The notes under the pieces were generated by a model. That model was not told where the DNA came from and did not search any database. It saw only the letters and a program-made list of their open reading frames with translations. The position numbers were made by a program, and so were the translations under genes. From the NCBI GenBank assembly GCA_964576835.1, contig CAZNXK010000002.1, positions 13,789 through 77,788 on the forward strand: a stretch of 64,000 bases of DNA, given 5' to 3'. Of this stretch, positions 13,783 to 29,487 are shown piece by piece. The DNA comes from an uncultured Treponemataceae bacterium (GTDB lineage: Bacteria; Spirochaetota; Spirochaetia; Treponematales; UBA12059). Every line of letters starts with the position of its first letter. Position 1 is the first letter of the stretch.

Positions 13783-13963
13783 CGTGTATCTCCAACTTTC
13801 AGAATCATATCAATGTTACTGCATACATTACTTTATCCGGCCATCGTACGCAACTGCCTTGCGGCGAAACCCGGATCAACAAATCTCGTCGCATCCAGTT
13901 ATTCGTTCCATTGTCGATAATTTTCTATTGACATACAAGAATAACTGGTCGAATTTTCAACCC

Positions 13964-22592: not shown

Positions 22593-23873
22593 CTATTCGT
22601 CGAGCCGCTCGATCCTTGCGCCGAGAACCTGGAGTCGCTCGGCGATGCGCTCGTAACCTCGTTCTATCTGGTAGACGTTCTTGATGGTGCTGACGCCTTC
22701 CGCGCACAGAGCCGCGATCACGAGGGCCATGCCAGCCCTGACGTCGGGCGACGTCAGCGAGTCACCCTGCAGCCTGGCCGGGCCAGAAACCACGGCACGG
22801 TGCGGATCGCACAGCACTATCCGCGCGCCCATTCCGATGAGCTTGTCCACCCAGAACATCCTCGATTCGAACATCTTCTCGTGGATGAGTATCGTGCCTT
22901 CTACCTGCGTCGCGACGACGGTCATGATGGAGGTAAGGTCAGGAGGGAAGCCGGGCCAGGGGGCGTCATCTATCTTCGGGATCTGGCCACCGAGGTCCGA
23001 GACGACGCGCATCGTCTGGCCGGGATGCACCGACAGGTCGCTTCCTTCCAGGCTCCAGGCTATGCCGAGCCGGCCGAAGGCGAGCTTCATCATTCGGAGG
23101 TCCGCGGGAATTACGCCTTCCACCACCAGATCGCCTCGCGTCACGGCGGCAAGTCCTATGAACGAGCCTATCTCCATGTAATCGGGACCTATCGTGAAAT
23201 CCGCCCCATGGAGCGACTGTGCTCCTTCTACCGCCAGGATATTGGAGCCAATGCCGGAAATGCCGGCTCCCATGGCGTTGAGCAGCCTGCAGACGTCCTG
23301 GACGTGCGGCTCGCTCGCAGCGTTGCCTATGACGGTACGGCCTTCCGCAATCGACGCGGCCATCACCGCGTTCTCCGTAGCCGTCACCGACGCCTCGTCG
23401 AGGAAAATATCGGAGCCCTTGAGCTTGTTGGCCGTGAACTGGAAGGCGCCATCGACCTCGATGCGCGCGCCTAACTCCTCGAGCGCCAGGAAATGGGTGT
23501 CAAGGCGTCGGCGGCCTATCACGTCGCCACCGGGCGGAGGCAGCGTCACCTTGCCGAACCTGGCCAGGAGCGGCCCTGCGAACAATATCGAAGCGCGGAC
23601 CTTGGCCGCGAGCCCGGCGGGTATGTCCGCCCCCTTGACGCCTGAGCCGTCGATCCTCCAGGCATTCCGGTCCAGCCTCTCGACGCCAGCGCCCAGGGCG
23701 CGGCATATGTCGAGCATCACGAGGACATCCTCGATCTCGGGAATGTTCCGCAGGGTAACCGGCTCTTCCGAAAGGAGGGAAGCCGCGATGCACGGCAATG
23801 CGGCATTCTTGTTGCCGCTCGCGCGGATCCTGCCCTTGAGCGGATGACCACCTTCGATACGGTATTGGTACAT
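22593..23873 (-). CDS. murA: UDP-N-acetylglucosamine 1-carboxyvinyltransferase
   Basis: 426 aa, with the N-terminus GGHPLKGRIRASGNKNAALPCIAASLL. The length and EPSP-synthase-fold repeats are typical of MurA. Confidence 0.92.
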   Translation of the reverse strand: MYQYRIEGGHPLKGRIRASGNKNAALPCIAASLLSEEPVTLRNIPEIEDVLVMLDICRALGAGVERLDRNAWRIDGSGVKGADIPAGLAAKVRASILFAGPLLARFGKVTLPPPGGDVIGRRRLDTHFLALEELGARIEVDGAFQFTANKLKGSDIFLDEASVTATENAVMAASIAEGRTVIGNAASEPHVQDVCRLLNAMGAGISGIGSNILAVEGAQSLHGADFTIGPDYMEIGSFIGLAAVTRGDLVVEGVIPADLRMMKLAFGRLGIAWSLEGSDLSVHPGQTMRVVSDLGGQIPKIDDAPWPGFPPDLTSIMTVVATQVEGTILIHEKMFESRMFWVDKLIGMGARIVLCDPHRAVVSGPARLQGDSLTSPDVRAGMALVIAALCAEGVSTIKNVYQIERGYERIAERLQVLGARIERLDE

Positions 23874-24026
23874 GATGGCATCCTATCGGGGCCGTCGATT
23901 GTCGTCAACGCCGTACGCGATGCGGCCGCCTGGTCGAAGCCGTTTGACCCGGAACTCATTGGGCACTACCTTTGTCGGACGGGCATGTGCACCGGCGCGC
24001 GCGGCCCCAAGCCACAAGGAGGCTCC

Positions 24027-25790
24027 ATGTCGATACAGAGAGTGAAACCGGTTCCAAGTGATATCGAGATCGCACAGGCCGCGACAATACGCCCGATCGT
24101 CCAGGTAGCCGCGAAGTATGGAATAGAAGAAGACTGCATCGATCACTTCGGCAAGTACAAAGCCAAGGTACGCCTCGAGTTCCTTAAAAAAAACGAAAAC
24201 CTGCCAAAACGGGCAAAATACATCGATGTCACGGCAATTACCCCGACTCCGCTGGGCGAGGGCAAGACGACCACGACCGTGGGACTGACCCAGGGCCTTG
24301 GCCGCTTGGGCAAACTAGCCATAGCCGCCATCCGCCAGCCGTCCATGGGACCAACCTTCGGCATCAAGGGCGGCGCCGCGGGCGGCGGCTACAGCCAGAT
24401 CGTCCCGATGGAGGATTTCAACTTGCACCTTACCGGCGACATTCATGCCGTCGCCGCCGCGCACAACCTCTGCGCGGCCGGACTCGACGCCAGGATGTAC
24501 CATGAAGGCCGCTGGTCTGATTCCTTCTTCGAGAAACAGGGAATGAAAAAACTCGACATCGATCCGTACCAGGTGCTGTGGCGCCGCGTCGTCGACATGA
24601 ACGACAGGCCGCTCCGCAACATCGTTCTTGGAGTCGGAGGCGTCGACAACGGCCCACTCCGCCAGAGCGGCTTCGACATAGCAGTAGCCAGCGAAGTGAT
24701 GGCCATCCTGGCGCTCGCCAAGGACCTTGGCGATCTCCGGGCGCGCATGGGAAAGATAATCCTCGCGATAGACAGGCAGGGCAAGGCGGTAACCACCGAG
24801 GACCTGGGCATTGCCGGGGCGATGACCATCCTGCTCAAGGACGCCATCAAGCCGAACATCCTGCAGACGCTGGAGGAACAGCTGGCATTCGTCCATGCCG
24901 GTCCGTTCGCCAACATAGCGCACGGAAACTCGTCGGTTGTTGCCGACATCATCGCTACCAAGATAGGCGATTACGTCGTCACCGAAAGCGGCTTCGGCGC
25001 CGACATGGGTTTCGAGAAATTCGTCGACATCAAGTGCCGGACGAGCGGCCTCTTCCCCGACGCGGCTGTCATCGTCGTTACGGTCAGGGCGCTCAAGATG
25101 CACGGCGGAGGACCGAAGGTATCGCCTGGCAAGCCGCTCGCGAAAGCGTACGTCGAAGAGAACGTCGAATTGGTCAAGCAAGGGCTGCCGAACATGATCG
25201 CCCACCTCGGCATAGTCAGGAAATTCGGGGTACCGTCGGTCGTCGCGATAAACGCCTTCCCGACGGATACCGAAGCCGAATGGGGCGTCATCAAGGAAGC
25301 CGCCATCAAGGCAGGCGCGACCGCTGCCGTCGTCACCAGGAACTGGGCAGAGGGCGGAGACGGCGCGGTAGAGCTTGCCGAAGCCGTCGTAAAGGCTGCC
25401 GAGCGGCCGAGCAGCGTCGAGCCCTTTTATCCGCTTGACCTGTCCATCAAGGAAAAGATCGAGAGAATCGCGCGCGAGGTCTACGGAGCGGAACACGTCG
25501 CGTACTCCGCCGAAGCCGACAAGGCGATAGACAAATTCGGTGAACTCGGGTTCGAACGCCTGCCGATATGCATGGCCAAGACGCAATACTCGCTGTCGCA
25601 CGATCCGGCGGTCAAGGGAGCGCCGAAGGGCTTCATCTTCCCGGTCAACGACGTGCGCATCGCGGCGGGCGCCGGCTTCATCTACCCGCTGTCGGGGGAA
25701 ATCAACACCATGCCAGGCCTGTCAAGCAAGCCGGGGTACATGGGCATGGACATAGACACCGACACCGGCCGCATCATCGGCTTGTCCTGA
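24027..25790 (+). CDS. fhs: Formate--tetrahydrofolate ligase
   Basis: Has MSIQRVKPVPSDIEIAQAA...ITPTPLGEGKTTTTVGL (P-loop) and PICMAKTQYSLSHD. AAGGAGG lies 5 nt upstream of the ATG at 24027, so the track ORF start at 23844 is rejected. Confidence 0.92.
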   Translation: MSIQRVKPVPSDIEIAQAATIRPIVQVAAKYGIEEDCIDHFGKYKAKVRLEFLKKNENLPKRAKYIDVTAITPTPLGEGKTTTTVGLTQGLGRLGKLAIAAIRQPSMGPTFGIKGGAAGGGYSQIVPMEDFNLHLTGDIHAVAAAHNLCAAGLDARMYHEGRWSDSFFEKQGMKKLDIDPYQVLWRRVVDMNDRPLRNIVLGVGGVDNGPLRQSGFDIAVASEVMAILALAKDLGDLRARMGKIILAIDRQGKAVTTEDLGIAGAMTILLKDAIKPNILQTLEEQLAFVHAGPFANIAHGNSSVVADIIATKIGDYVVTESGFGADMGFEKFVDIKCRTSGLFPDAAVIVVTVRALKMHGGGPKVSPGKPLAKAYVEENVELVKQGLPNMIAHLGIVRKFGVPSVVAINAFPTDTEAEWGVIKEAAIKAGATAAVVTRNWAEGGDGAVELAEAVVKAAERPSSVEPFYPLDLSIKEKIERIAREVYGAEHVAYSAEADKAIDKFGELGFERLPICMAKTQYSLSHDPAVKGAPKGFIFPVNDVRIAAGAGFIYPLSGEINTMPGLSSKPGYMGMDIDTDTGRIIGLS

Positions 25791-25802
25791 TACGAAATAA
25801 GA

Positions 25803-25923
25803 CCGTGGAGGCACGGAGTCAGGACATGCATGGAGAGTGGATGAAGGAATTCGAGCATGATGAAGTAGTTCTGATCCTGAACTTTCATTCTCTCAATCTT
25901 TGCACTTCTTCTCCGTGTCTCTC
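25803..25923. repeat. MITE-like intergenic repeat, copy A (shorter/degenerate)
   Basis: Runs CCGTGGAGGCACGGAG ... ATGGAGAGTGGATGAAGGAAT ... CTTTCATTCTCTC ... CTTCTTCTCCGTGTCTCTC. It has the same block order as copy B at 27065-27213 and lower GC than the flanks. It lies between the convergent fhs and polyprenyl synthase genes. Confidence 0.6.
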
Positions 25924-26045
25924 TTTCATTATTTTCTGGTATTTTTTATGTAACCCAAGAGGCGGTCGAGGAGGATTTTCGGGTCGATTCCTGCAAGGGT
26001 GATGCAGCAGGCCAGTTCTGCCCGGCATTCAAGGCGTGATCCGCC

Positions 26046-27008
26046 TCAGGATTTGCGCGACAAGAGTCGTTCTACCGTGGTGTGCAGGTCGTCGCGGGCG
26101 CTTCCCTTCGGCAACCTGGAGAGTTCCCTCATAGCCCGACCGGTATACGCTGACGCCAGGGCCTTGGCTGAATCCAGTGCGCCTGATTCCCTGACAGCCT
26201 CGACTATCGCCGCTACCGCTTCGTCATCAGGCTTGGTCGCTCCCAGACGTAGCAGGATGCGCGCAGGGTCCGCTCGCATCGCAAGGATCAGCGGCAACGT
26301 GCAGAGCCCCTCGCGTACATCCTTGGCCACTGGCTTTCGCATGTCGCATGGATTTGACTCATAATCCAGCACGTCGTCCATGATCTGAAAGGCCATGCCT
26401 GCGGCGTATCCCGCCCGGGTCAAGGCCGCGATATTGGCGGGGGAGGCCCTGGTCTCCACGGCGCCGGCGCGAAGGGCCAGCGAGAACAGCGCTGCGGTCT
26501 TGCCTGCGATCTTGCGCAGGTAATTACGTTTGCTCCTTGGCCACTTGAACCGATCAAGGTCCTGATGTATCTCTTCCGAGCACAAGGCGCCTATCAGGGC
26601 TGCCAGGAGTCTCGCGTTGCCGGGGCTGGAACTGTCAGAAGCGAGCCTGAAGCAGCGCGAGAACAGCCAGTCGCCCGCGAGGACCGCCTCTTTCGGCGAA
26701 TACAGGGAATGTATCGTCGGGATGCCGCGCCTGGTATCCGCCTCGTCGATGACGTCATCGTGGATGAGTGTCGCGATGTGCAGGAGCTCTATGGCGGCGG
26801 CGAGGTCCGTGAGGTCCCTGGGACGCTTGCCGAATCGTCCCGCCATGATGAGGAAGGCTGGCCTGAGCATCTTGCCGTTGGCGTCGATGAGTCGCTCAAC
26901 CGCTGCGGCAAGCGGGAATCGATCCGAGCCGACCACGGACTTCATGCGTCCGCGGACCGCGTCAAGCCTTGCCGGGATATCGGGGATGCCGTTCCAGAAA
27001 TCTGTCAT
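26046..27008 (-). CDS. Polyprenyl diphosphate synthase (trans-IPPS; IspB/HepT-like)
   Basis: 320 aa. First Asp-rich motif LIHDDVIDEADTRRG; second motif FQIMDDVLD. Confidence 0.88.
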   Translation of the reverse strand: MTDFWNGIPDIPARLDAVRGRMKSVVGSDRFPLAAAVERLIDANGKMLRPAFLIMAGRFGKRPRDLTDLAAAIELLHIATLIHDDVIDEADTRRGIPTIHSLYSPKEAVLAGDWLFSRCFRLASDSSSPGNARLLAALIGALCSEEIHQDLDRFKWPRSKRNYLRKIAGKTAALFSLALRAGAVETRASPANIAALTRAGYAAGMAFQIMDDVLDYESNPCDMRKPVAKDVREGLCTLPLILAMRADPARILLRLGATKPDDEAVAAIVEAVRESGALDSAKALASAYTGRAMRELSRLPKGSARDDLHTTVERLLSRKS

Positions 27009-27064
27009 CGTCTATTCGGCTCGTTTCACTGGTCTTGGTTCGCAAGTCACTACCAAAAGGCGAA

Positions 27065-27213
27065 CCACGGAGACACGGAGGCACGGAGAAATACAAAAAT
27101 GGAAGGAATGGATGTCTGGGGGTAGTGCACAGACCACCATAACTCATACATCTTTCATCTTCTCTGTCTATTGTCTCTTCTGCGCATTGCTCCGTGTCTC
27201 CGTGCCTCCGTGG
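27065..27213. repeat. MITE-like intergenic repeat, copy B, with 24-bp terminal inverted repeats
   Basis: The left end CCACGGAGACACGGAGGCACGGAG (27065-27088) and the right end CTCCGTGTCTCCGTGCCTCCGTGG (27190-27213) are complementary at 22 of 24 positions. Each end is three tandem CACGGAGN octamers. The interior has ATGGAAGGAATGGATG and CTTTCATCTTCTC blocks, as in copy A. Confidence 0.7.
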
Positions 27214-27243: not shown

Positions 27244-29220
27244 TTACTTCGTCGGGTCGTCGGCGTAGAAGTGCCACTTGCGGGCAACCTTCGTTCCGTT
27301 CCACCACTTCTTGAACATCGGCACGCTCCAGTAGTCCATGCCGAACGAGCGTCCGGCGCCGCCGAGCATCAGGATGCCGGCGAACACGAACCAGAGCTGG
27401 TCCCAGGCAAACATGCCTGACAGCGTGAAGATGACGCACATCGCCATGCTCGCCATGGCCGCCCACCAGGTGAAGAACCCTCCGAACAGCGCAAGTCCGA
27501 TGCCGATCTCCATTACAACGATCATCGCCTGGAAACCCTGATACGGGAGGTAGGCGAAAATACCGTCCATGAAGGTCGTGCGGAACCAGGTGCTGATGAC
27601 GCCGTTGAAATCGAATATCGGCTTTGTCAGGTCCCATATCTTGCCGAATGCGCGGGTAGCGGTGTCGGCCACGGCGGTAGCGGCCTCCGCGACTGGTTCT
27701 GCCCAATCGCCGGAAGCGGCACTGACAGCCTCTGTCACGGTTTCAGCTGCGGCGCCCCAGTCGCCCTCGGCGCTGGCCGCGCTTACCGCTTCTACAGCCT
27801 TCATGCCAGCCTGGGTCACGCCTGAACTGAACATCCACCCGCTCTTGGAGCCGGCAGACCATGCGAGCCATCCCTCGCCTATCTTGTTCACGCCTTCCAT
27901 CACCCACATGAGGCCGAGCCACATGCGCAGGAGGAGCGGCCAGTAGCCCCTGACCTTCCAGGTAGCGAAGCCTCCGATGAACGAACGGCGGTCCTTGATG
28001 TCGAGGAACTCGTGCTTGATGTACTCCCAGACCTGGTTGATGCCCGCGATGTTCAGGAGGTACCACACGTTGATCATGTGTTTCATCGCAAGCGCGATGA
28101 AACCGCTGCTCTTCATGCCGCCGGCGTTGGCCACGCCGTAGCGTCCGCCTATCGACACCATGAAACCGTGGAAATTGGACTTGAACTGGTGGCGCTCCGC
28201 GCTGCCTTCAATATCAGCGATGATGTTCCTGGCGGCGACTTCGGCGGTCTGGTGCGCGCCTTCCACTATCTGCGGAACGGGTTTGCCGTTCTCGAGGAAG
28301 AAGGAGTTGTCGCCGACCACGTAGAGGAAGGGGTAGTCGGGGCTCTTCATCTCCGCGTCGACCTGGAGCCGGCCGCGGCCCCTCTCGCCCTTGGTCACTT
28401 CAAGGCCCGCGGCAAACGAACTGCCCTTGACGCCGCAGGTCCAGATGAAGGTGTCGGTCTCGACGACCGTGCCGTCCTTGAGCATGACCTTGCCGGGCTC
28501 GGCTCCGGTGATGGAAGCGTTGAGCAGGACCTCGCAACCCTTCCTGGAAAGGTATTCTTCGGCTTTCACCCTGAGCGGCTCTTCGAGTATGGGGAGGATG
28601 GACGGCAGGGCCTCGATGTTGACGACGCGGGTCTCGGCACGGTCGATGTAGTGCTTGCGGCACATCGCGTCGCGGAACTCGAGAAGTTCGCCTATCATCT
28701 CGATGCCGGTGAATCCTGCACCGGCGACGGTGAAGGTGAGCATCCTCTTGCGGGCTGCGGGATCGGTCTCCTCGGCGGCGCGAGCGAATATATCCTCGAC
28801 GTGGTGGCGGATCCTCATCGCGTCGTCGAACGACCAGAGGCTGAACGAGTTGTCCTTGACCCCGGGAATGTTGAAGTACTCGGGCTCTCCGCCGGCTCCG
28901 ACGATGATGTAGTCGAAATCGTAGCCGCGGGCCTTTCCGACGGCCTTCCTGGCCTTGAAATCGACTGACTGGATGTCGTCGAGCACGACGTCTATCCGCT
29001 TGGCCCCGAAAATCTTCCTGAAATTGACCTGCACCGATTCCGGCTCGGTGCGCCATCCGGCGACCTCGTGGAGCTCGGTCATGAGCGTATGGAAAGGCTT
29101 CCTGTCGACCAGGGTAATCTCTACGTTCCGGTCCTTCCTGAAATGCTTTTCAAGGATCTTCCCCGCCCAGACGCCGCCGTAGCCGCCCCCGAGTATCAGT
29201 ATCTTCTTGGTCTCGGCCAT
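27244..29220 (-). CDS. Type II NADH dehydrogenase-like FAD/NAD(P) oxidoreductase fused to a C-terminal DoxX-like membrane domain
   Basis: Has KKILILGGGYGGVWAG and FTVAGAGFTGIE dinucleotide-binding motifs. The C-terminal ~230 aa are hydrophobic (DoxX-like) and interrupted by an Ala-rich internal repeat (VEAVSAASAEGDW / TEAVSAASGDW). The ATG at 29220 is preferred over 29271 because AAGGAG lies 5 nt upstream. Confidence 0.85.
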   Translation of the reverse strand: MAETKKILILGGGYGGVWAGKILEKHFRKDRNVEITLVDRKPFHTLMTELHEVAGWRTEPESVQVNFRKIFGAKRIDVVLDDIQSVDFKARKAVGKARGYDFDYIIVGAGGEPEYFNIPGVKDNSFSLWSFDDAMRIRHHVEDIFARAAEETDPAARKRMLTFTVAGAGFTGIEMIGELLEFRDAMCRKHYIDRAETRVVNIEALPSILPILEEPLRVKAEEYLSRKGCEVLLNASITGAEPGKVMLKDGTVVETDTFIWTCGVKGSSFAAGLEVTKGERGRGRLQVDAEMKSPDYPFLYVVGDNSFFLENGKPVPQIVEGAHQTAEVAARNIIADIEGSAERHQFKSNFHGFMVSIGGRYGVANAGGMKSSGFIALAMKHMINVWYLLNIAGINQVWEYIKHEFLDIKDRRSFIGGFATWKVRGYWPLLLRMWLGLMWVMEGVNKIGEGWLAWSAGSKSGWMFSSGVTQAGMKAVEAVSAASAEGDWGAAAETVTEAVSAASGDWAEPVAEAATAVADTATRAFGKIWDLTKPIFDFNGVISTWFRTTFMDGIFAYLPYQGFQAMIVVMEIGIGLALFGGFFTWWAAMASMAMCVIFTLSGMFAWDQLWFVFAGILMLGGAGRSFGMDYWSVPMFKKWWNGTKVARKWHFYADDPTK

Positions 29221-29487
29221 ATGTTCTCCTTGAGCCGTGTCATGGACCGGCGCGTCGTCGTTCGCCGGCATCGGAGTCTACTCGCCGTCCCGCCAATCTG
29301 GCAGGCAACACGAGATTCCATGATTGCAGATTTTGGACATTGCGATTGTGCCGTCTTCCATTGCCTGCGTCAAGGTCGAAATCTATATATACCTAAATAT
29401 AGTAAGTTTTCTATAGAATCCAGTCCCGATGAATGCCTTGACCCGGGAAGCCACAGGCCATTACATTTATAAGACAGAGGAGAATCC

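Follow-up and report, generated by a model that had tools for sequence, protein, structure and literature searches.

The 64,000-nt (64-kb) stretch analysed here, called the window (positions 13,789 to 77,788 of contig CAZNXK010000002.1 from an uncultured Treponemataceae bacterium), carries two palindromic intergenic elements with arms built of CACGGAG octamers, copy A (25803-25923) and copy B (27065-27213), one on each side of a polyprenyl synthase gene. On balance, and with confidence only a little better than even, we regard A and B as independent local members of a widespread, non-autonomous family of palindromic repeats located at terminator positions. They are classed as non-autonomous palindromic repeats because members of the family are gained, lost and replaced at palindromic spots, keep one polarity of their arms, nest in one another, and are spread across phyla and phages. 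[quoted passage not shown] Their membership in a dispersed, hairpin-forming, non-coding repeat family was supported, but the interiors of A and B are unrelated.

Copy B is a complete palindromic element without an assigned strand, a 149-nt hairpin between the NDH-2-like and polyprenyl synthase genes in which each arm consists of three tandem CACGGAG-N octamers, as first described. On the + strand, the purine arm CCACGGAGACACGGAGGCACGGAG (27065-27088) is a C followed by three CACGGAG cores separated by A and G, and the pyrimidine arm CTCCGTGTCTCCGTGCCTCCGTGG (27190-27213) is three CTCCGTG cores separated by T and C and followed by G. The distance between these 24-nt arms is 101 nt; a repeat finder delimited 28-nt arms with 89% complementarity, 93 nt apart, making B the longest and strongest local inverted repeat of the 64 kb. 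The 101-nt interior (27089-27189, no strand assigned) contains an imperfect inner stem, in which ATGGAAGGAATGGATGT (27099-27115) pairs with ACATCTTTCATCTTCTCT (27148-27165), and an apical hairpin. The two-unit tandem pattern occurred four times in the window, always in B, against 0.07 expected from shuffles, and no further tandem-unit copies were present in the window beyond A and B. Folding of B as RNA gave -62.8 and -64.0 kcal/mol for the two strands (z of -6.0 for the first value and about -6 to -7 for the pair, against shuffles), and folding as DNA gave a z of -5.5 against shuffled controls. No target-site duplication was found at B, the flanks TTATTG and CAATAA being inverted and not direct. 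Inversion of the B interior between the arms was considered and ruled out, as alignment in the same orientation scored better. A BLAST search of B against cultured plasmids and phages gave no match, which is uninformative given the low-complexity filter and the host bias of that set.

Nine related Spirochaete loci in which the gene order is kept (L168 to L176) were compared with the window. Site B was filled in six genomes, the window included: with three units per arm in the window, L168 and L169, where the interiors are homologous and diverged; with two units per arm in L172 and L173, the loop in L172 carrying an extra G-rich insert of about 97 nt; and with one to two units per arm in L174. 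L171 has an ordinary (canonical) GC hairpin followed by TATTTT at this site, L175 has another GC hairpin, and only a 9-nt spacer separates the genes in L170 and L176. Between the window and L168, all 42 heptamer-core positions were identical, compared with 68 of the 101 interior positions (about 67% identity; Fisher p = 2e-6). Across three genomes the heptamer cores were invariant at 41 of 42 positions while the spacer N varied, and the DNA flanking site B was about 80% identical. The whole of B folded as a single hairpin in these three genomes, and four compensated pairs were seen. In each of the six filled genomes the stem is followed by a T-rich tail, TTCGYCTTTTSG; in the window the tract TTCGCCTTTTGG (27037-27066, - strand) lies directly 3′ of B on the sense strand, within a small hairpin (GGTTCGC...GCGAACC). 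The same stretch, between B and the start of the polyprenyl synthase gene, is conserved in L168, L169, L172 and L173 (GGTTCGYCTTTTSGTA...TACGAGCC, then GAAGCGAGCCGTATAGACGATG), and may hold the promoter and ribosome-binding site of that gene.

Copy A (no strand assigned) is a decayed member of the same octamer family, located at the convergent junction between fhs and the side of the polyprenyl synthase gene that carries an mntP remnant. Each of its arms retains one perfect and one mutated unit: on the + strand, the purine arm (25803-25818) consists of CCGTGGAG, two transitions away from CCACGGAG, followed by GCACGGAG, and the pyrimidine arm (25911-25923) of CTCCGTG followed by a decayed TCTCTC. 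A T-rich tract, TTTCATTATTTTCTGGTATTTTTTATG (25924-25950, +), follows A on the fhs-sense strand, and an A-rich leader (25791-25802) mirrors it and serves the opposite strand, so that the stem is followed by TTTCATTATTTTCTGGTATTTTTT on the fhs strand and by TCTTATTTCG on the other. As RNA, the + (fhs-sense) strand of A folded at -46.5 kcal/mol (z -2.9) and the other strand at -33.0 kcal/mol (z -1.0); thus only the + strand folded clearly better than shuffles. The arms of A and B matched significantly (5 of 1000 shuffles reached the score), and the 8-nt arm motif is the only part they share. The interiors showed no significant likeness, their score being reached by 232 of 1000 dinucleotide shuffles, so the block order said to be common to A and B was not upheld; nor does the 'same orientation' assigned to the two have meaning for a palindrome. 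The two interiors are alike in type: in each, an inner 5′ half rich in purines (ATGGA/GGATG/AAGGA) stands opposite a 3′ half rich in pyrimidines. In an independent scaffold from this organism (L122:4037-4046, corresponding to about 25676-25803 of the window), the sequence gives way to N exactly where A has its outer edge, which is typical of assembly collapse at a repeat; L122 was rejected as an empty site A, the apparent difference being the scaffold N run.

Site A is more fluid than site B. In L168, CACGGAG arms surround an unrelated G-rich core, L172 has CACAGAG/CTCTGTG arms with a two-sided compensated change, and L171 has mixed units. Hairpins of quite different modules are present in L169, L173 and L176, a plain 16-bp hairpin followed by T5 in L170, a separate short GC hairpin in L174, and nothing in L175. 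The polyprenyl synthase gene itself was present in all nine relatives, and sites A and B varied independently of each other; nothing here points to the excision or duplication of this gene that had been proposed earlier to occur between the copies. A second repeat family was encountered within CACGGAG/CACAGAG arms at sites A and B: it is about 110 nt long and G-rich, contains the hairpins GGGGGTATCCCCC and CTGGGGGCAGATCCCCCAG, matches nothing in Rfam and does not occur in the window. It was located at L168:5048-5261, L172:5048-5242, L172:3265-3500 and L174:3304-3500, with opposite orientation in L168 relative to L172.

The distribution of the arms outside these Spirochaetes was determined by scanning one genome per species (596 Gb, two strands) with the pattern CACGGAGNCACGGAGNCACGGAG, which has 21 fixed bases. 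Three tandem units, (CACGGAGN)3, were found in at least 120 genome stretches, compared with about 0.3 expected by chance according to an arithmetic estimate, and in 44 further stretches of IMG/VR, some of them on P22-like phage contigs. Phyla were assigned by record title, and the counts are among the matches listed: 45 stretches were from Acidobacteriota, 40 from Planctomycetota, seven from other members of the Planctomycetes-Verrucomicrobia-Chlamydiae (PVC) group, five from Myxococcota, four from Cyanobacteria, three each from Chloroflexota, Nitrospirota, Geobacter and Actinomycetota, and a few from others. The host range thus comprises mainly Acidobacteriota and Planctomycetota, plus about eight other phyla. 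In the outer flank, the 5-mer seen most often was TTCAC, both in the viral set and in Planctomycetota, Acidobacteriota and Myxococcota. Inner flanks are rich in A, and most units have a purine as their spacer N. The cyanobacterial and actinobacterial matches are plain tandem arrays without the TTCAC and A-rich flanks, and are probably a different thing from the hairpin family. A count of copies and a definition of their ends had been suggested at the outset; the arms proved to be dispersed, no target-site duplication was seen at them, and in a metagenome scan with one exact pattern the core of B was not multicopy.

Anatomy was recorded for 165 sources, the loci having been picked by one perfect three-unit arm, and comprised 97 hairpin elements (48-433 nt) and 82 single arms. 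The two paired sites lie from 6 to about 380 nt apart across the family. The purine arm was 5′ of the pyrimidine arm in 94 cases and the reverse held in four. The number of units per arm varied from one to seven; 55 of the 89 hairpins having at least three units on one arm had three on both, the partner arm being the one that was not ascertained. Partner arms varied jointly with pairing kept, as in the CACAGAG/CTCTGTG arms of L172 and in G-U-compatible changes in L173, L008 and L098. Interiors were unrelated between loci, yet they were themselves hairpins of other tandem 7-9-nt modules (CACGAAGG, CACAGAGG, CACAAAGG, ACAGGATG, CGCAGAT and others), giving nested 'Russian doll' hairpins with module layers within module layers. 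Trains and nests of such 7-9-nt modules (CACAAAGG, GTGATCG, CGCAGAG, ACAGGATG, CACTGAT, GATCGGGA, GCCAAGG) were also observed in the same intergenic regions, at L052:6232-6350, L073:3573-3850, L044:3224-3420, L088:3750-3840 and other places; 7- and 8-nt units dominate, and neither length is divisible by three. In a Pirellulaceae metagenome-assembled genome, whole elements were tandemly repeated, with three head-to-tail copies about 95-100 nt apart (L098:4604-4820, L013:83-338).

About 10% of the copies lie inside long open reading frames (ORFs) with coding signal on both sides. In-frame copies were verified by Pfam domains of the host protein on both sides of the insert in an Lhr helicase with two inserts (L006), IleRS (L064), MnmG (L002), an MmeI-type methylase (L099), the PHP domain of DnaE2 (L030), a Nostoc aminotransferase (L042), a GT4 glycosyltransferase (L141), a planctomycete PSCyt protein (L053) and a phage capsid fusion. 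Such insertion was seen for the family and not for A or B. Since 24 nt, the length of three 8-mers, correspond to eight codons, all frames read a rotation of H-G-(G/D)-T-E-(A/T)-R-R with no stop; the opposite strand of the arm reads L-R-(A/V)-S-V-(P/S)-P-C, also with no stop in any frame. With no stop in any frame of the octamer triplet, copies are able to remain in frame within genes. The hydrophilic purine strand was the sense strand in all five Pfam-verified single-arm inserts, and intergenic elements had 3.24 open frames out of six, compared with 2.24 in shuffles. The acidobacterial DnaE2 PHP domain is an insertion hot spot (L030:3696-3789, L178, L179, proteins P0121-P0216), where homologues carry a CACGGAG/CACAGAG hairpin, a different module (NQQSTI...) or nothing at the same position. 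Homologues at 72-84% identity carried variants of the insert; it was absent in the two listed at 87% and 85% in a 200-residue comparison. The empty DnaE2 DNA has only a mini-palindrome, GTTTAC-TAC-GTAAC, at this position. Neither the DnaE2 filled/empty pair nor five copies examined within genes showed a target-site duplication.

Taken as non-autonomous palindromic repeats, the elements would be mobilised in trans by an enzyme acting on hairpin DNA. They would insert into small palindromes and hairpin loops, or develop out of them, as a rule at the ends of genes; slippage would change the number of units, and whole layers would be gained and lost. B may have entered the spacer between the NDH-2-like and polyprenyl synthase genes in the ancestor of a subclade of these groundwater Spirochaetes, and it now occupies the spot where the relative L171 has an ordinary intrinsic terminator. 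A has its place at the convergent fhs junction, between the A-tract and the T-tract.

Several observations weigh against this interpretation. No mobilising enzyme, autonomous parent or target-site duplication was found in the loci examined, and it is the pattern of presence and absence that speaks for mobility. The interior of B has so far behaved as single-copy, since a metagenome scan with one exact pattern recovered only its orthologue. The 7-nt core is identical across phyla, which is hard to explain by transposition alone and could reflect a conserved binding partner. Unit counts are biased by the way the loci were picked. As for the terminator positions, the flank after the stem reads GTGAA followed by mixed bases family-wide, with no U-tract. 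Genes around foreign copies were called approximately, from codon-usage log-odds (this caller replaced a longest-ORF caller that over-called ORFs through the elements); with these crude calls, 43 hairpins lay between co-directional, five between convergent and ten between divergent genes, without convergent enrichment. Single intergenic arms showed no orientation bias to genes (17 versus 18), and the family-wide advantage in folding of the sense strand was small (25 versus 15, p = 0.036) and could instead reflect a transcription-linked C-to-T bias.

At the sites themselves, A and B would most likely act as transcript-end hairpins, either as terminators or as blocks to 3′ exonucleases: B takes the place of the L171 terminator, both elements have T-rich tails, and transcription from the neighbouring upstream gene yields the better-folding strand in A, in the site A hairpin of L171, and in the site B hairpins of L168, L169 and L173. 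The terminator or messenger-stabiliser role proposed in the initial annotation is accordingly plausible at sites A and B and weak for the family as a whole; as the family has no U-tract, has divergent spacers among its locations and has unoriented single arms, a terminator role is at best local.

If such a role were the whole explanation, the elements would be functional RNAs kept in situ and not mobile, namely 3′-untranslated or intercistronic hairpins serving termination, exonuclease block or RNase III cleavage, with a GGAG arm that might contact the ribosome or CsrA. The retention of site B with its T-rich tail in six genomes, the canonical terminator at the same spot in L171, the compensated pairs in B, the better folding of the sense strand at several orthologues and, slightly, across the family, and the Shine-Dalgarno-like or GGA-rich character of every module seen (GGAG, AAGGA, AGGAT) are consistent with this explanation. 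It is nevertheless unlikely. Rfam at gathering and permissive thresholds gave no match in the window and five related loci, only sub-threshold, spurious plant-miRNA hairpins; ten hairpins lie in divergent promoter regions; and, besides the missing U-tract and the unoriented single arms, no RNA role is obvious for copies that lie in frame within genes. The occurrence of the same sequence in distant phyla, together with filled and empty alleles among close relatives, indicates gain and loss, not descent.

We consider it somewhat more improbable still that the paired octamer runs are duplex binding sites for an IHF/HU-like protein (IHF, integration host factor) or another global regulator, inverted pairs of which would bracket a DNA loop or bend. 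A tandem 7-nt core with a free spacer and inverted pairing has the look of iterons or operators, and the core is invariant across about 20-33% neutral divergence. However, with a period of 8 bp neighbouring sites do not share a face of the helix, the arms co-vary to keep a pairing that a duplex site does not need, and the interiors are themselves hairpins. Copies also occur in phage genomes and, in frame, within housekeeping genes; one regulator would need to be conserved over about ten phyla, and by eye there is no evident match to the IHF consensus.

Classical MITEs, i.e. deletion derivatives of a DDE insertion sequence with octamer runs as terminal inverted repeats, would account for the outside-to-inside polarity of the ends and for variable interiors between shared ends, such as the one G-rich core that occurs within CACGGAG/CACAGAG arms at two sites in three related genomes; the assembly break at the edge of A is also as seen at repeats. 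We regard this origin as very doubtful, because classical hallmarks of MITEs were not found: target-site duplications were missing both from the copies within genes and from the DnaE2 filled/empty pair, and the loci examined yielded no cognate transposase sharing these ends. All-against-all clustering of 4180 ORFs from 164 loci revealed no recurrent linked protein family, the most frequent being present at seven of the 164 loci; no full-length element bounded by arms was present in the 164 loci; and no transposase lay between distant arm pairs, the 6-kb stretch of L155 encoding only proteins without a Pfam match. The variation of unit number from one to seven and the commonness of single arms also count against it.

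The octamer runs might instead be filler at DNA breaks, where a templated polymerase or reverse transcriptase would extend each 3′ end by an identical run (the cut tip of a hairpin being one such break) and so create an inverted repeat whose added strand runs 5′ to 3′ on each side, with repeated breaks producing nested layers. Polarity, nesting, single arms, the missing target-site duplication and the many unit sequences sharing one architecture would all be explained. This proposal is highly improbable, being pure conjecture with no enzyme or template identified; moreover, the conserved CACGGAG layer at site B is the outermost and not the innermost, and the same interiors recur together with their arms. 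Local coincidence of low-complexity CACGGAG runs without any family, which the initial annotation had named as the outcome if no further copies existed and A and B did not align significantly, can practically be dismissed: over the entire window the lone heptamer shows no enrichment (13 versus 11.7 expected), but eight of the 13 lie within A and B, the tandem pattern far exceeds its expectation, and hundreds of copies with the same flanks and polarity exist elsewhere.

A wider generalisation of the mobile palindromic-repeat reading is offered tentatively, and we think it more probably wrong than right: the octamer hairpins could be one class of a pan-bacterial, modular, mobile hairpin DNA, in which many 7-9-nt modules share the same architecture and polarity, nest in loops, spread in a hairpin-specific manner over at least ten phyla and phages, and routinely seed peptide loops in essential proteins, as the 8-nt units leave all frames free of stops. 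Likeness of TTCACCA to a tRNA 3′ end or primer-binding site, mimicry of the 16S anti-Shine-Dalgarno sequence, and a CsrA sponge are speculation.

The closest described counterpart is class 2 of the sites predicted to bind a global regulator in Geobacter metallireducens (Gmet_I201-I222; 21 paired sites and one unpaired), reported by Aklujkar et al. 2009 (PMC2700814). These consist of three tandem repeats with the consensus TCTCCGTS[Y], the two sites of a pair being on opposite strands and separated by a distance that varies; they lie between genes, nearly always adjoining the 3′ end of a gene (16 co-directional, five convergent, one divergent), carry the annotation of putative IHF-binding sites and were described as peculiar to the one genome (PMC2700814). 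B fits three TCTCCGTS[Y] repeats base for base, with opposite-strand pairing and an intergenic location, and A keeps one intact unit per arm. Judged by its sequence, the octamer hairpin is the same element as the Geobacter class 2 site, and the kind is therefore not new. The Geobacter sites were described in one genome and read as IHF/HU sites, with no discussion of a hairpin, mobility or intragenic copies, whereas the host here is a Spirochaete and the family extends to about ten phyla and phage contigs and in frame into genes. In the literature searched, the cross-phylum distribution, hairpin covariation, nesting and in-frame intragenic copies of the octamer family were not found. In the sister class 1 sites of G. 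metallireducens (GTTGCTYN, four times), the IS110-family elements ISGme8/9 are inserted at a fixed distance (PMC2700814, supplementary file 5); IS110 elements target repetitive extragenic palindromic (REP) sequences likewise.

The family is closer in spirit to REPs and REP doublets forming hairpins (REPINs), and to Rickettsia palindromic elements (RPEs), than to classical MITEs. REPs, REPINs and bacterial interspersed mosaic elements (BIMEs) are likewise dispersed extragenic palindromes, often at gene ends, without target-site duplication and with mosaic clustering; they have roles as terminators or mRNA stabilisers and are mobilised by REP-associated tyrosine transposases (RAYTs). REPs are imperfect palindromes of 20-40 nt with a GTAG or CGTC tag and have occasional in-frame intragenic copies, e.g. 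in Opitutus terrae (PMC3733652). The earlier comparison of A and B with REP, ERIC (enterobacterial repetitive intergenic consensus) or Correia elements therefore holds in general spirit, but not in the REP hallmarks of tag and length. No GTAG/CGTC tag was visible at element ends in the family consensus, and the elements are 48-433 nt long with a core shared across phyla, unlike the largely lineage-specific REPs. The arm is a tandem octamer run and not itself a palindrome, and no linkage to a RAYT was seen in the 64-kb window and the 8-kb loci.

RPEs, about 100-150 nt long, are found both between genes and, inserted in frame, in housekeeping genes unrelated to one another, where they are translated as hydrophilic loops (PMC10969869). 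The octamer family likewise provides in-frame palindromic inserts with the host domains intact on both sides; unlike RPEs, which are confined to Rickettsia and relatives with family-specific sequences, it spans phyla, and its frame-neutrality results from the arithmetic of the 8-nt unit. With bacterial MITEs (Correia/NEMIS, ERIC, RUP, Nezha), which affect termination and mRNA stability, the family shares non-coding sequence, terminal inverted repeats (in B, 24-28 nt and 89% complementary) and hairpin-forming transcripts, but the target-site duplication, homologous core and parent insertion sequence of MITEs were not found here in one 64-kb window, an exact-pattern scan and 164 loci. Intrinsic terminators and SPRITE-like terminator repeats also combine a stem with a T-rich tract at gene ends, as the canonical terminator of L171 does at site B; the stem of B is very long by comparison (24-28 bp in the outer part, about 150 nt in all) with a large loop, and the family consensus has no U-tract.

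The cyanobacterial short tandemly repeated repetitive (STRR) heptamers and small dispersed repeats (SDRs), attributed to Mazel 1990 and Elhai 2008, are said to consist of tandem 7-8-nt units in hairpin contexts, with nesting and suspected mobility without a known enzyme. The octamer family resembles them in units not divisible by three and in the nesting of one repeat in another. The unit sequences differ, and the cyanobacterial CACGGAG matches are plain arrays without a TTCAC flank or an inverted partner.

The order of features around the two elements is fhs (+), A, the mntP remnant (-), the polyprenyl synthase gene (-), B and the NDH-2-like/DoxX gene (-). The gene for formate-tetrahydrofolate ligase, fhs (23844-25790, +), ends with a stop codon 12 nt before A. 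Its ORF is 648 aa as listed, with a Pfam match that begins at residue 72, and its orthologues are annotated with 587 aa, so that translation probably begins within the listed frame, near 24027. The mntP remnant (25956-26042, -) comprises the last 29 codons, 72% identical to MntP of L168, and lies directly after the stop codon of the 320-aa polyprenyl synthase gene (26046-27008, -). As a full mntP of 191-192 aa is present at the same spot in six relatives and absent in three, the gene has been lost and/or gained repeatedly there. On the other side, the stop codon of the gene for an NDH-2-like pyridine nucleotide-disulphide oxidoreductase fused to DoxX (27244-29271, -) is 30 nt from B. Both A and B are intergenic, non-coding and GC-poor, as noted at the outset (0.35-0.50, against about 0.60-0.65 in the flanks). 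The window comes from an uncultured groundwater spirochaete: groundwater metagenomes contain identical contigs, and among named homologues the nearest belongs to 'Spirochaetes bacterium GWB1_59_5'.

For this locus the meaning is modest: A and B are two hairpins at terminator positions and pose no threat to the polyprenyl synthase gene. Beyond the locus, they belong to an under-described cross-phylum repeat family whose core, flanks and polarity are shared between Acidobacteriota, Planctomycetota, other PVC bacteria, Myxococcota, Chloroflexota, Nitrospirota and Spirochaetota. In genome annotation, such repeats give rise to spurious ORFs and to breaks in assemblies; in protein evolution, they readily supply inserted loops in hosts other than Rickettsia; and for the biology of mobile DNA, they are a family that no known mobilisation mechanism fits. 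As G. metallireducens GS-15 is a cultured and genetically tractable host with 21 annotated pairs, the question is directly testable.

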